Notes under the pieces: generated by a model
Told to the model about the DNA's origin: nothing
Database searches by the model: none
Seen by the model: only the letters and a program-made list of their open reading frames with translations
Shown here: positions 53,932 to 60,308 of the stretch, one piece after another
Layout of the letters: every line of letters starts with the position of its first letter
Position numbering within the stretch: position 1 is the first letter of the stretch
From: a virus
Lineage: Duplodnaviria > Caudoviricetes
Strand: one strand, 5' to 3'
DNA: 64,000 bases
Virus record (IMG/VR): IMGVR_UViG_3300029305_003178
Coordinates: 1 to 64,000 of that record
Translations under genes and position numbers: made by a program

Positions 53932-55281
53932 TTAAGCTTTAACAACATCTTCGAATACAACGATAAATTTACCATAGCCAACGCTAGGAATGTATACATA
54001 GTATTCATAAGAACCAGAAGCAGCTTTTTCCAGTGGTGCACCTGTATAGTTTCTAGCTTTACCAATTACATTATCAATTGTACCCAGTTTTTCCAGGGGT
54101 ACCAGACCGTAACTGATTTTACCATTTTCTACAGTTTTTGTATAACACACTGTATCTCTCATAATCTGTTCTTCACCTGCAAACAGTTCGAATGCGATGT
54201 AGGACTGACCATGTTCTCTTCTATGTGTAATGACATCAACATCACCTTCAACGGATTTGGAGATTTCATTTGCATAGCCATTTATTGTACCCAGAGCATA
54301 AACTTCACCAGCTCTCAGTACCTTACCATATTTAATACCTGCTTTGATCAGGAAATCATAACCATTTACAGTTACTTTGATATCACCATCAACTTCAGCA
54401 CTTGTAAAGATTACAGGAACTGCAACGAACAGTGTACCATCTTCTACTTTAAATGCAGGTGCAACAATAAAGCTATTATTACCAACACTCAGTCTAATTG
54501 TCTGATCTTTTGTGAATGTTAATTCACCGACTGTGATTTCATCAGCATCACTAATACCAGAAGCTACTTCTGTATAGAAAGATTCAGAAGCTTCTAATGT
54601 CTTGTTGCTACCAGATTTATTATAGTATGTGTCTTTCAGTTCAACTGTTTTAGCTGCTGTTTTTTCAGCAACTACTGCAGAGCGTTCAACTTCTGGAACA
54701 AAACCATCTACAGAGAATACTTCTCTATCGGATGTATTAAACATAATCAAACTATTTACTTTTTTCATTACTCTAGCAACGAATGTATATTCGCCGGGAT
54801 CGTTGACTGTTTCAACAGCTTCAACCAGTTCACCATTCCACATTACACAAACAGGTTTGGATGTGGATCTAAATGTTACCATTGTAGCATCTACAACTTT
54901 AATATCGGAAATAATCATATCTTCAGCAGTATCTACAGCCAGATCAACAATTTTGTCCATAGGTACTACATGAATGTCAGATGCATATACATCAGAACAG
55001 TCAACTACGATAGCTGTAGGAGTTACTTTTTTAGCAAAGATAGATTCTGTGCTGTGTTCACAATCGTTAGCAGTATTAATAACTTTTTCTGTTGTTTTAA
55101 TTACTTTAACGATACCATCGATAGTAACTTCTTTACCTTCAGCATTAACATATACTAAGTTTTTAATCAGCTGACCTTCTTTAAGTTCAACCATTTTATA
55201 GGAACCGTTTTCATAGTTAAGTTTAACTTCAACTAAAATTTTAGAAATCGGTGTAACAGATTTCAATTTTAAATTAGCCAT
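53932..55281 (-). CDS. Putative virion protein
   Basis: 449 aa, beta-rich; late motif at 55320-55331. Confidence 0.65.
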   Translation of the reverse strand: MANLKLKSVTPISKILVEVKLNYENGSYKMVELKEGQLIKNLVYVNAEGKEVTIDGIVKVIKTTEKVINTANDCEHSTESIFAKKVTPTAIVVDCSDVYASDIHVVPMDKIVDLAVDTAEDMIISDIKVVDATMVTFRSTSKPVCVMWNGELVEAVETVNDPGEYTFVARVMKKVNSLIMFNTSDREVFSVDGFVPEVERSAVVAEKTAAKTVELKDTYYNKSGSNKTLEASESFYTEVASGISDADEITVGELTFTKDQTIRLSVGNNSFIVAPAFKVEDGTLFVAVPVIFTSAEVDGDIKVTVNGYDFLIKAGIKYGKVLRAGEVYALGTINGYANEISKSVEGDVDVITHRREHGQSYIAFELFAGEEQIMRDTVCYTKTVENGKISYGLVPLEKLGTIDNVIGKARNYTGAPLEKAASGSYEYYVYIPSVGYGKFIVVFEDVVKA

Positions 55282-55319
55282 AATTATGAGCCTCCTTTAT
55301 AATAAAAATAATTATTTTT

Positions 55320-55385
55320 TACTTTATTGTTTCAATATTAAGAATTACTGTATCCGTATTTATTAGATTTTTAAATATATATTAT
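55320..55385. promoter_or_regulatory. Back-to-back late (-) and early (+) promoters
   Basis: AACA-ATAAAG-TA on -; AATATATATTAT on + at 55374-55385. Confidence 0.65.
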
Positions 55386-55389
55386 TATT

Positions 55390-55731
55390 GTGAATGAAAG
55401 ATGTATAATGCATTTTATCATTCAAATGTAACTAATTATCATTATTTATTAAAAGTTTTAAAATTAAAATGACACACCAAATGATTAATTGTACTATGCT
55501 AGCGGGCAATTGATCACCAAGGATTATTATTGTATCGTGCACATATAATAATATCCAGGCAATCTGGTCTCCCTATGGAGGTATATTCAAAAATCCCAGA
55601 ATATATGAACGGTGTGGTGCATTATACGTATGCATTCTAAAACCAGGGGACTAAGTAAAAGCAAGATCAGCTTTTAAGAGACAACCTAAATATGACTTCT
55701 CAATTTCGATGGGTGGTTGTCTTTTTTTTTT
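55390..55731 (+). ncRNA. Candidate structured non-coding RNA, family not recognised
   Basis: No ORF in the track; own early promoter; consecutive stem-loops; AGACAACC/GGTTGTCT plus T10 terminator. Confidence 0.55.
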
Positions 55732-55795
55732 GTTTTAAATAGTATTTTCTATCTCACATTAATTATAAGACAGAAATAGAAAGGTGGTGCTATAA

Positions 55796-56446
55796 ATGAA
55801 ATATAGTTCTCATAGCACTTATTATAATAAAGAAGGTATAGAAGTTCCTAGTGTAACTACTATACTTAAAATATTAAATAAACCAGCATTAACCACATGG
55901 GCTAATAATCTAGGCTGGAATAGAAAAAGCGTTAAAAAAGTATTAGAAGAAGTTTCTGATATTGGAACAGCTGTACATGAAATTATTAACTGTATATTAG
56001 CTAAAAAGAAATTAGAATATAGTAAATCACATATTCCATTTGATGTATTGTATCCGTATGTAATGAACTTTATGAAGTTCTATAATGATCATACATTCGA
56101 ACCAATTATATTAGAAGAATCTCTTAGTGTAGATAATTTTGGTGGCACAATAGACTATTATGGTAAATTAGATGGAAAATATACAATTATAGATTTTAAG
56201 ACATCTAAACAGATAAGAATGTCGATGTTTTTACAACTTGCTGCATATTGCATTATGTTGGAAAAGTATGGTCATACTGTAGAGCAAGTGGGTATATTAC
56301 TAGTAAATAATAAAAATGGCGGATTTAGATGTATATCTAGAGAAGAATTAGATCCATATATAGAAGTATTTAATGCTTTAGTAACTTTATTTCATTTGTA
56401 TTATAATCTTAACGAAAATGAAAATTGGCATGAAATGATTATTTAA
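55796..56446 (+). CDS. PD-(D/E)XK (RecB/Cas4-like) exonuclease
   Basis: PSVTTIL, GTAVH, GGTID, IIDFKTS, LQLAAY. Confidence 0.9.
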   Translation: MKYSSHSTYYNKEGIEVPSVTTILKILNKPALTTWANNLGWNRKSVKKVLEEVSDIGTAVHEIINCILAKKKLEYSKSHIPFDVLYPYVMNFMKFYNDHTFEPIILEESLSVDNFGGTIDYYGKLDGKYTIIDFKTSKQIRMSMFLQLAAYCIMLEKYGHTVEQVGILLVNNKNGGFRCISREELDPYIEVFNALVTLFHLYYNLNENENWHEMII

Positions 56447-56498
56447 TAAAAATAAATTCAGATATATATTATATAATCAGAAAGGTTAGTGATATAAT

Positions 56499-57692: not shown

Positions 57693-59007
57693 ATGATGTT
57701 TAAAACAAACTCTAAAAATAATTATATTAAAGAGCATGATAAAATTCCATTGAAATTCGATATTTCAATGTTAAATATGTTTATAGGCTACTTATTTAAA
57801 AAGGCTCCTGGTATTACTAGAAAGTCTTTAAATAATATGAAAAAGCTTATAGATATTATAGATGAGACAATTTATGACGGTAATGATCAAATGAGTGAAA
57901 GATTAGAGTTTATTAAGAATGCATTAGATGCAAAACTCAATCAAGGATTTGAAAATGATGAAATGATCATCAACTATTGTCGTAGCGATATAGACAATAA
58001 AGAAAATAAAGAAATTATTGAAAATATTCCGTTATATACAAAGATAAATTATGATGAGATAACATATATCAATAAAGCAGTAGAAGATAGATTAAAATTC
58101 TTCTATTTATATTATTATAAAGATAGAATTTATAATGTTATGGAAAAATTAGATAGTGGTAATTATAAATCTTTCTTTGAAATTAATAATGAAGCAATTG
58201 ATGTATGTACTCAATTAGTTAATGCTGCAAGAAAAGTCAAATCAGTTGATGAAACGGATACATTTTCATTATCTGATGAAAATTTTGAAGATAATATTAT
58301 TGACATTGCAGAGAAATTAAAAAATCCATCAAGCATATTACAAACTGGTATACAGAAATTAAATCAAATGTTTGCACCTGGACTAATGTCTGGTAGACTC
58401 TATATGTTTCTTGGTCTCCCTGGTGGATATAAATCTGGTATACTTCTTAAAATAGCAAGAGATATTAGAAAATATAATAAAAATATTATAGGTAAAAAAC
58501 TCGGTAAACGACCATGTGTATTACTTATAACAATGGAAAATTCACTTCAAGAAACAGTAGAACGATTATTTAATATGACTATAACATCCACTAATATTAG
58601 AGATTATACTCCTAATGAAGTGGTTGATCTTATTAAAAAATCCGGAGAGTTTGAACTAACAGATGAGAACGATATAGATATAATTATTAAATATTATGCG
58701 AATAGAACTATTGATACATCTGATTTATACACCATAATAGAGGATTTATCAGATGATGGTAAAGAGGTTATAGCATTAGTATTAGACTATATCAAAAGGA
58801 TTCGTTCTTCGGAAAAATCAAAAGATGAAAAAGAAGAATTAAAAAATGTCACTAATGAATTAAAATCTATTGCTCAATATTATGATATACCTGTGATAAG
58901 TGCTTCACAGTTAAATAGATCCGGTGCATCTACAGTAGATGCGGCGTTACAGTCTAATAAAGAGGATCTCGGCAGACTATTGGGTAGATCTAATGTTGGT
59001 TCAGCCT
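57693..59007 (+). CDS. dnaB: Replicative DnaB-like helicase, exon 1
   Basis: GLPGGYKS Walker A, ITMEN, VLDYIKRI, SASQLNR; interrupted after GRSNVGSA. Confidence 0.9.
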
Positions 59008-59982
59008 TAAAGATTTATAGGGCTGATTAAATCTTTTTAATTGCTGGAAACTCCTTAGAGCTTAAGATACCAAAGAGTAACAATTCTTAAGATTGGACAA
59101 TCAGCAGCCAAGCTTTTGTAAAATATTGTATTAAAAAAGTATTTATTATTTATTCATTTATATATTATTTATAGGAAGGAGTTGATATTTATGAATTGCA
59201 CAATTGATATAGGTAATGAGTTATGGACTAATTTAGTATATAAAGATATTAAACCAATGTATGAAATTAGTACATATGGAAATATTAGAAATAGAAATAC
59301 TAAAAAAGTTCTTAAAAAATCAGTTAGTGAAAAAGGTTATATTCAAATTGGGTTAATGGTATATAGTAAGAAGAAAAGTAATAAGACATTTAAATTGCAT
59401 GTACTTGTTGCTCATACATTTTTATCAAAACCGCCCAATTTCTACTCAGAATACTATACTGTTAACCATAAGAATGGTAATAAGAATGATAATTCTATTT
59501 ATAATTTAGAATGGATAACATTTACTGAAAATATACAGCATTCATATAAACTCGGTCTTAATAAGCCAAGAAAAGGTTCTTTGAATGGTAGAAACAAGTA
59601 TGATGAAAAAATAATAGAATATGTATGTGAACTTATGTCTAAGAACTATAAAAATAAATATATTATAAACTGTGTGCTTGATAAATTCTCAATACAAATA
59701 TCAAAGCATGTCATTCATGATATACGACGTAAAAAGACCTGGACACATATTAGTAATAAATATTTTACAAAAGAAGGTTCAACGACTATCGAAAATTCTA
59801 ATAAAGATGAGTATCGTTATGATATTATAATCGAATTTAGAGATTAGTAGAGTACATCCAAGTGGATGGAAACGGAAGACATCTTATAATTATAAGATGA
59901 AGATATAGTCTGGTCTTTATGGAAACATAAAGAAGTTCATAAGAGAACTGCATAGAATTAACGACTCTATGTGAACATATCG
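59008..59982 (+). mobile_element. Group I intron in dnaB with homing endonuclease
   Basis: P1 TCAGCCT|T...AGGGCTGA with U-G at the splice site; P AATTGCTGGAAA, Q AATCAGCAG, R GTTCAACGACTA, S AAGATATAGTCT; terminal G; removal restores GSA-W-EIIENSDW. Confidence 0.93.
59191..59847 (+). CDS. NUMOD4/HNH homing endonuclease (intron-encoded)
   Basis: YEISTYGNIRN, LHVLVAHTF, VNHKNGNKNDNSIYNLEWITFTENIQH; own early motif at 59159-59168. Confidence 0.92.
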   Translation: MNCTIDIGNELWTNLVYKDIKPMYEISTYGNIRNRNTKKVLKKSVSEKGYIQIGLMVYSKKKSNKTFKLHVLVAHTFLSKPPNFYSEYYTVNHKNGNKNDNSIYNLEWITFTENIQHSYKLGLNKPRKGSLNGRNKYDEKIIEYVCELMSKNYKNKYIINCVLDKFSIQISKHVIHDIRRKKTWTHISNKYFTKEGSTTIENSNKDEYRYDIIIEFRD

Positions 59983-60308
59983 GGGAAATAATAGAAAATA
60001 GTGACTGGTGCTGTATTATTAATATTGAAAGAAAGAAAGATACTGGTCAGTATTATCTTACTTTCAAGAGAGTAAAAATTCGTTATGGTGATCCAACAAA
60101 TTTAGATTACATAAATCATCCTTTTAATATGGACAATAGAATGCAGTTAATTGATGATATAGAATTAGCCCGTTCTTTATCTGAGGACAGTTTAGCATCT
60201 AATTTTGAAGGTATTGAATTATTGAATAAAAAAGGTAAAAGACATGCAGTTGAAAGAGAGACTGTAGATGATGAAGGATTATTTGATTTTTCAAAATCTA
60301 TAACTTAA
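59983..60308 (+). CDS. dnaB: DnaB-like helicase, exon 2 (not in ORF track)
   Basis: WEIIENSDWCCIINIE...LTFKRVKIRYG; spliced CDS 1641 nt, 546 aa. Confidence 0.88.

Follow-up and report, generated by a model that had tools for sequence, protein, structure and literature searches.

An uncultured giant phage from ruminant-gut samples carries, directly upstream of an exonuclease gene, a stretch of about 340 nt that is free of open reading frames (ORFs), that lies between an exact match to the early promoter of the Bacillus giant phage AR9 and a strong intrinsic terminator, and whose body is replaced by non-homologous, non-coding sequence in the closest different lineage. The unit (55392-55731, + strand) is an orphan candidate for a phage non-coding transcription unit and, in our reading, an early RNA cassette that can be exchanged within a variable slot for RNA genes.

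Genomic context of the locus

The window, that is the whole stretch of DNA analyzed, comprises the first 64 kb of a virus record of 227 kb with a GC content of 29%. The phage is present in the JGI ruminant-gut samples 3300024303, 3300018493 and 3300032167 and in the ENA buffalo/ruminant sets from which L082-L086 derive. The unit lies in an ORF-free gap of 514 nt (55282-55795) that holds a GC island and divides two divergent genes:

53932-55281, - strand: orphan gene of 449 aa, probably late (ORF)
55796-56446, + strand: PD-(D/E)XK / Cas4-like exonuclease gene, with the RBS AAAGGTGGTG at 55780-55789 (ORF, family match)

The 449-aa protein has no Pfam or PHROG family, and a search of 5.8 billion proteins returned one other cluster only, at 76% identity; this probably late orphan gene is confined to the lineage. 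The nuclease belongs to phrog_298, a conserved phage exonuclease family, and is followed downstream by genes for a Mre11-like phosphoesterase and then a DnaB-type helicase. The slot between the two genes lies between a late structural module and an early recombination/replication module. No Bacillus phages were present among the organism names listed in the nuclease search. A related giant-phage contig of 213 kb (L138), whose nuclease is 43% identical, is binned in a Herbinix sp. MAG, a weak hint that the hosts are Lachnospiraceae or other Clostridia. Rfam matches to group I introns adjoin the DnaB genes of two relatives (L087:6956-7326 and L088:7536-8159); at the Rfam gathering threshold, Intron_gpI is absent from the window, including 57693-60308, and the only matches in the window are four tRNAs.

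No credible ORF was found in the gap under code 11, under code 4 or with TAG read as Gln. A 61-aa frame under code 4 and a 90-aa minus-strand frame under TAG=Q were rejected because both lack an RBS and code 11 leaves the flanking genes intact. GC content is 0.13-0.20 in the flanking spacer and reaches 0.39-0.41 at 55500-55650. Of the 14 ORF-free gaps in the genome that measure 250 nt or more, this one has the highest 150-nt GC (0.40), the tRNA region excepted, and the island falls within the top 4% of all 150-nt windows genome-wide. An earlier note on this DNA had described the stretch as GC-richer than the other spacers, and this is borne out (0.40 against 0.13-0.25 in the spacers of this phage); every element that the note had placed within 55390-55731 was also located at its claimed coordinates when the sequence was checked.

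Transcription signals and predicted start

The following signals were recognized around the unit:

55320-55331, - strand: predicted late promoter AACA-ATAAAG-TA, 39 nt upstream of the start of the 449-aa gene (AR9 late consensus AACA-(6N)-TA)
55354-55361, + strand: CCGTATTT box upstream of the early promoter, common to a sub-class of early promoters (sequence)
55373-55385, + strand: early promoter AAATATATATTAT, followed by 6 nt and the predicted start G55392 (exact AR9 consensus)
55392-55731, + strand: predicted ORF-free early transcript of ~337-340 nt (promoter, terminator, ORF scan)
55437-55464, + strand: direct repeat 75% identical to 55351-55378, possibly a decayed promoter duplicate (repeat search)
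55677-55731, + strand: intrinsic terminator, an interrupted stem of -12.9 kcal/mol followed by T10 (sequence, fold)
55754-55773, + strand: degenerate early-promoter-like element TCACATTAATTAT-aagaca-G, matching at 8/13 positions (sequence)

The early genes of AR9 are read by an injected virion RNA polymerase from the consensus AAATATATATTAT-(6N)-G+1, defined by dRNA-seq and primer extension (PMC5312081). At 55373-55392 the 13-mer, the 6-nt spacer and G+1 are all equal to this consensus. The early promoter that the earlier note had placed ahead of the non-coding stretch is therefore an exact match to a defined consensus, with 22 perfect copies genome-wide, 55373 among them. An ORF start preceded by a Shine-Dalgarno (SD) sequence follows 15 of these 22 copies at 19-72 nt from the predicted start; from 55373 the next SD-preceded ORF is 404 nt away. 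The late-promoter consensus of AR9 is AACA-(6N)-TA (PMC5312081). Since the late motif is on the minus strand and the early promoter on the plus strand, the gap lies between a late unit running leftward and an early unit running rightward. Judged by its promoter, the stretch classifies as a predicted early transcription unit of the AR9 type, read by a virion RNAP.

Several observations concern the early promoters of this phage at large. Positions with the early consensus include 1264-, 1292+, 29083+, 34039+, 68309+ and 76666+. A yCGTATTT(T) box located about 11-14 nt upstream of the 13-mer marks a sub-class (40736, 41237, 55373, 94013, 129977, 137983, 163508, 202907, 205625 and 120205), which may represent a separate regulatory class. 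Among the predicted early transcripts with long leaders, seven of the eight inspected begin with a hairpin at +1/+2 (for instance those at 55392, 129996, 155332 and 220258, and also that of L086), and this hairpin may be a 5' stabilizer. Both the early and the late AR9 consensus are used by this phage although it is not close to AR9 by protein similarity, which suggests that the AR9-like transcription system is wider and reaches giant phages of the ruminant gut.

Predicted fold of the transcript

The transcript was folded in full, and its main elements are as follows:

55392-55413, + strand: 5' arm of a long-range closing helix, pairing with 55617-55636 (full-transcript MFE)
55473-55616, + strand: multibranch core in the GC island, in which P1 (CACACC/GGTGTG) closes five hairpins (RNAfold)
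55581-55606, + strand: hairpin P6 with the loop AAAAAUCCCA (fold)
55656-55676, + strand: penultimate hairpin AAAAGC/GCUUUU, with AAAAAC/GUUUUU at the corresponding position in L086 (fold)

In the predicted ensemble the closing helix stacks on P1 (strands CACACC 55473-55478 and GGTGTG 55611-55616), which encloses P2 (55482-55516), P3 (55521-55556), P4 (55555-55567), P5 (55569-55580) and P6, and is followed by a single-stranded linker, a small hairpin and the terminator. Pair probabilities in the full transcript are 0.70 for P1, 0.96 for P2, 0.93 for P3, 0.35 for P4, 0.95 for P5, 0.86 for P6 and 0.93 for H8. The hairpin at the 5' end and that at 55617-55635 reach only 0.06 each because the long-range helix 55392-55413/55617-55636 replaces both; when the downstream leader is included in the fold, a local 5'-terminal hairpin (55392-55423) forms instead of the closing helix. 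The stems tiled by the earlier note all occur in RNAfold MFE structures, but P4 and the two hairpins just named are poorly populated in the ensemble. The two long-range pairs that it had proposed to cross as a pseudoknot are short complements and gained no further support; CTGGT/ACCAG, of 5 nt, found none.

The arms of the terminator are AGACAACC (55679-55686) and GGTTGTCT (55715-55722), T10 extends over 55722-55731, and the stem forms with a pair probability of 0.97 in the full transcript. Arms and T-run lie where the earlier note had put them and the stem is strong; a simple terminator scanner missed it because its loop is long. The plus strand folds with an MFE of -79.4 kcal/mol against -69.0 kcal/mol for the minus strand, includes 10 G-U pairs among 99 and is the only strand with the T-run, which favors it as the predicted sense of the unit.

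Against dinucleotide shuffles the z-score is -3.18 for 342 nt and -2.2 for both 267 nt and 168 nt. Forty random 267-nt segments of the same genome gave a mean z of -1.43 (sd 1.39), and 8 of the 40 scored at or below the -2.16 of the unit; fold stability is not distinctive here, since about one in five random genome segments equals its z. Sliding-window folds across the locus were unremarkable. The expectation that the stretch folds better than shuffled sequence therefore holds (z -2.2 to -3.2), but not beyond the genomic background. On the minus strand, two overlapping 170-nt windows within 55665-55919 scored z -4.3 and -3.6, and a hairpin TTTCTATCT / AGAAATAGAAA lies within 55746-55782, just ahead of the nuclease RBS.

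Searches for known families, homologs and targets

Rfam 15 at gathering thresholds returned, across the 64-kb window, only four tRNAs at 60.4-60.9 kb, and a permissive scan of 55200-55900 with E up to 10 gave noise, the best score being 17 bits against a threshold of 62.6 bits. This agrees with the earlier observation that T-box, tmRNA, SRP, RNase P and intron signatures are missing from the locus; riboswitches, 6S, group I and II introns, pRNA and CRISPR repeats were among the Rfam families without a match there. Neither tRNA nor tmRNA was detected in the unit by ARAGORN or Rfam RF00005, and an origin of the insert by tRNA decay was rejected as it gave no tRNA-model signal. A T-box leader was likewise discarded, with no RF00230 match at E up to 10; the conserved GGGTGG sits in the 3' arm of the terminator and not in an antiterminator. 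Neither tandem repeats nor iterons occur in the unit.

The covariance model R1, built on the core (168 positions, 52 pairs), gave no match in 33 related loci or in the whole genomes of 9 relatives, and in the genome of the phage itself it found its own locus and no paralog. Searches with the RNA gave no blastn match among 50,697 phage records and AT-rich noise only (blastn and nhmmer) in 80 related loci. Exact-word scans of viral and GTDB genome collections with the core sequence gave no match, and a scan of viral and metagenome collections with the terminator arm gave 45 loci, all chance matches. Within the phage genome, self-BLAST for paralogs or antisense targets returned chance matches of 12-17 nt only, no significant complementarity of the RNA to the genome was found and the terminator (55677-55731) is unique. 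No coding remnants were detected by tblastx in the loci of relatives or in the phage's own genome. The only copies of the RNA that were found, in L084 and L085, are identical ones; over ~2 kb the locus in two short JGI contigs differs by 1 and 3 mismatches, all of them outside the gap.

Conservation and covariation in syntenic relatives, which had been named as a check, were thus not observed: identical copies apart, R1 detected nothing. The RNA is not a conserved family, and the evidence for a conserved structured RNA is weak. Of the proposal of a novel phage ncRNA, what stands is a promoter-terminator unit free of ORFs and without a known family, and what does not is conservation or a fold out of the ordinary. 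Absence of conservation and folding no better than shuffled sequence had been set beforehand as refuting outcomes, and the results, with identical copies only and folding at background level, come close to both.

Exchange of the body in the sister lineage

The closest different lineage (L086, L082 and L083) shares 85% identity in the nuclease, 76% in the 449-aa protein and 82% at the nucleotide level in the flanks. It keeps the left part of the gap with the promoter as ATTTATATATTAT, a variant which also precedes genes in the genome of the window, as well as the stretch down to the start of the nuclease gene and the terminator, which carries a compensatory A>G / T>C change. The sequence between them is different:

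55395-55710, + strand: block for which the sister lineage has non-homologous sequence (L086 686-955; BLAST breakpoints)

With breakpoints at 55394 and 55711, about 316 nt are swapped for a non-coding insert of 270 nt, and the two inserts align no better than shuffles (z about -0.4). Given these breakpoints, the exchange spans the transcript from +3 to the 3' arm of the terminator. The L086 insert appears ORF-free by eye, begins with a 5' hairpin and folds with a z of -2.3. Three TCCC motifs occur in inserts of this type, and one lies in a clear hairpin loop. A hairpin loop in the unrelated L086 insert also contains the 8-mer AAAATCCC of P6; by itself this match carries no significance, as about 2.6 shared 8-mers are expected by chance, by our own estimate. 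In the sister lineage the body of the unit is dispensable or at least replaceable.

At a contig end, L082 (1-50) diverges from L086 (905-955) over its first 35 nt. A minus-strand ORF (MKKEIWGFYPPPLGG...) starts at this divergence and is cut to 12 codons in L086. The end of L082 represents a third version of the slot, unless it is a chimera created by assembly.

The slot in distant relatives and the link to the nuclease

In more distant relatives, in which the nuclease is 44-58% identical, the slot upstream of the nuclease gene varies. It holds a tRNA-Gln and a second tRNA-like 3' end that is cut off, with hairpins and an early promoter close to consensus after it, in L152; a tRNA-Pro with a terminator and a promoter in L087; a tRNA-Leu in L088; a tRNA-Leu and a tRNA-Gln in L005; an ORF-poor stretch of 470 nt (z -5.3) in L089 and L090; and small ORFs, or nothing, in the others. 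The cargo can be exchanged, but the frame around it is conserved: an early promoter plus a terminator, set in a slot that serves stable-RNA genes. The stretch of L089 (3520-3990, + strand; identical in L090) has 37-42% GC, lies directly upstream of a nuclease ortholog (56% at the aa level), has no Rfam match and terminates with a hairpin of 17 bp some 25 nt ahead of the RBS; as a structured RNA or leader it is better supported than the RNA of the window.

More than 100 nuclease orthologs were gathered by alignment-based search, and the RNA was absent upstream of the nuclease in all of the ~30 loci inspected. The tie between RNA and nuclease that had been suggested is not upheld by these loci, nor by the 85%-identical ortholog with its unrelated insert. 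Since the family is widespread without the RNA and the nearest ortholog has a different insert, the RNA is not tied to the nuclease, and a nuclease-specific partner is unlikely.

Proposed role and alternative explanations

The explanation preferred here, although tentatively and at a likelihood somewhat short of even, is a stand-alone, immediate-early, lineage-specific accessory RNA that acts in trans, with leakage through the terminator feeding the nuclease gene. The virion-borne RNA polymerase would start at G55392 right after DNA entry and make an ORF-free RNA of ~337 nt ending at the strong intrinsic terminator. This RNA, if stable, would fold into the 5'/3' closing helix, the five-hairpin junction, the linker, the small hairpin and the terminator, and would serve as a regulator or decoy aimed at RNAs or proteins of the host or the phage. 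Its exposed loops, such as the AAAAAUCCCA loop of P6 and the palindromic loop CGUGCAC of P3, may be the acting parts. The nuclease gene has no consensus promoter of its own, and leakage through the terminator probably supplies a low level of its mRNA. As far as sequence can tell, the promoter match, the distance of 404 nt to the next ORF and the T10 terminator with its compensatory change support a stand-alone cassette, as do the GC island, the bias to the plus strand, the exact swap of the body and the stable-RNA genes in the slot of relatives. Giant phages are moreover known to make intergenic and 5'UTR-derived sRNAs by early termination (PMC11512511). Against it stand the lack of covariation, conservation or a paralog, the ordinary z-score and a body that is replaceable in the sister lineage.

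The main alternative is a cis-acting leader or attenuator, in which 55373 would be the promoter of the nuclease gene, the 340-nt body with its terminator a dosage valve and the terminated RNA a by-product; this is possible, although on the less likely side. The interval from the terminator to the nuclease gene contains no AACA-N6-TA and no repeated promoter motif, its best match to the early consensus is only 8/13, and the next consensus-like early promoter, at 56460, serves the gene after the nuclease and not the nuclease itself. In AR9, a single mismatch at some positions reportedly inactivates the virion RNAP (PMC5312081). In addition, the structured 470-nt stretch of L089 leaves no room for a promoter before the nuclease RBS, and in 201phi2-1 premature termination gives rise to 8 of 11 sRNAs (PMC11512511). 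However, visual inspection reveals no antiterminator pairing with the arms of the terminator, signals of known riboswitches or T-boxes are lacking even when E is relaxed to 10, and one would not expect a sensor leader to give way to unrelated sequence next to a nuclease that remains 85% identical. Furthermore, L087 and L152 have a near-consensus nuclease promoter (TTTATATATTAT) after the terminator, at the position of the degenerate element at 55754-55773, so that this element may still function.

It is unlikely, but should be weighed, that the body is non-functional filler, either debris of cassette exchange or a decayed gene, which is transcribed because it sits between a live promoter and a terminator. 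Its restriction to a single lineage, the different body in the sister lineage and a fold ordinary for this genome agree with filler, as do the apparent cut-off 5' end of a minus-strand ORF in the L086-type insert, which continues in L082, and the decayed duplicate of the promoter-upstream segment inside the unit. Yet AT pressure should erode junk, whereas the GC island stands well above the spacers (0.13-0.25) and falls in the top 4% genome-wide; tblastx of the relatives' loci and the phage's own genome revealed no coding remnant, and a perfect consensus promoter and a strong terminator are kept. The T4 origins oriF and oriG use a promoter-driven RNA that forms an R-loop primer, and the position of the unit directly upstream of the nuclease, Mre11-like and DnaB genes, the AT-rich stretch after the promoter (55395-55470) and a local minimum of the cumulative GC skew would suit such a replication-origin transcript. 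When the GC-skew check proposed for this idea was run, the minimum only tracked the switch in gene orientation, with the global extremes at ~14 kb and 114 kb, and so offered no positive evidence; the unit has no iterons, its transcript ends at a strong terminator, and the sister lineage has another body in its place and most relatives have none, which leaves an origin very improbable. A role of the RNA as partner, guide or antitoxin-like inhibitor for the neighboring PD-(D/E)XK nuclease is extremely improbable. The order of promoter, RNA, terminator and nuclease resembles type III toxin-antitoxin loci in architecture only, but there are no tandem repeats, relatives without the RNA have the phrog_298 nuclease with the same Mre11-like gene next to it, and an 85%-identical nuclease has a different RNA upstream. 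A type III toxin-antitoxin system of the ToxIN kind was itself rejected, as the tandem antitoxin repeats are missing and the downstream gene encodes a PD-(D/E)XK/Cas4-like exonuclease and not ToxN/AbiQ.

An extension of the preferred trans-acting RNA, which we consider improbable, is that the slot is a dedicated site for exchangeable RNA genes in this group of giant phages, bounded by a virion-RNAP promoter and a terminator and filled by different lineages with tRNAs or unrelated structured RNAs. Its non-tRNA occupants (this RNA, the L086-type RNA and the 470-nt RNA of L089) would be immediate-early decoys or inhibitors of host RNA-directed defenses. Decoys against defenses that cleave tRNAs or sense RNA would explain both the company of tRNA genes and the rapid turnover.

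Comparison with known systems

Small RNAs of Firmicutes with C-rich (UCCC) loops include RsaE/RoxS and hairpins of RNAIII. The P6 loop of the predicted RNA exposes UCCC in the same way; it differs from the RsaE/RoxS type in having one exposed motif, with an enrichment that is weak and not significant, and in being much larger. RNAC and RNAD of phage T4 are encoded with the tRNA cluster and measure ~120-140 nt. They resemble the unit in being non-tRNA phage RNAs that occupy tRNA-gene territory, but they are late and processed from tRNA precursors, whereas the unit has its own early promoter and terminator and is unrelated in sequence. Both have been described as small RNAs without assigned function (PMC9697503).

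The early units of AR9 (PMC5312081) are identical in promoter 13-mer, spacing and G+1; in AR9, too, the late motif AACA-(6N)-TA, found here on the divergent gene, is used and intrinsic terminators delimit units. The passages of the AR9 report that were searched describe early promoters heading protein-coding operons, whereas the present unit is ORF-free for 404 nt. The sRNAs of phages 201phi2-1 and phiKZ likewise have a terminator between their start site and a gene and are short non-coding transcripts (PMC11512511, PMC8244752), but they are <250 nt, supported by transcripts and in one case conserved across genera, while the unit is ~337 nt, predicted from sequence and confined to one lineage. 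Compared with the 5'UTR-sRNAs of 201phi2-1, it has the layout of start, terminator and CDS by sequence, and its ~337 nt exceeds their cut-off of <250 nt.

In T4-type phages, PeSL cassettes combine an early promoter with a stem-loop terminator and undergo modular shuffling (PMC2839356, PMC4122927). As in these, the breakpoints of exchange coincide with promoter and terminator and a variable region lies between conserved modules; a variable cargo bounded by the two signals is indeed exchanged between close relatives. PeSL elements differ in that they flank protein-coding ORFans and are repeated sequences, while the cargo here is non-coding; as for a repeated motif that could provide recombination homology, the promoter has its 22 perfect copies and the terminator none besides itself.

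Implications for giant phages

Folding z-scores do not discriminate in this AT-rich genome and call for caution. Giant phages with their own RNA polymerases are known to produce a few non-coding RNAs, none with an established function. The present locus indicates that an AR9-type early promoter can head a transcript predicted to be gene-free, and that close relatives can swap the cargo of an early unit as a module, within a slot otherwise occupied by tRNA genes. Should the RNA be functional, it would rank with the earliest molecules to appear after DNA entry, when host takeover and counter-defense are decided.
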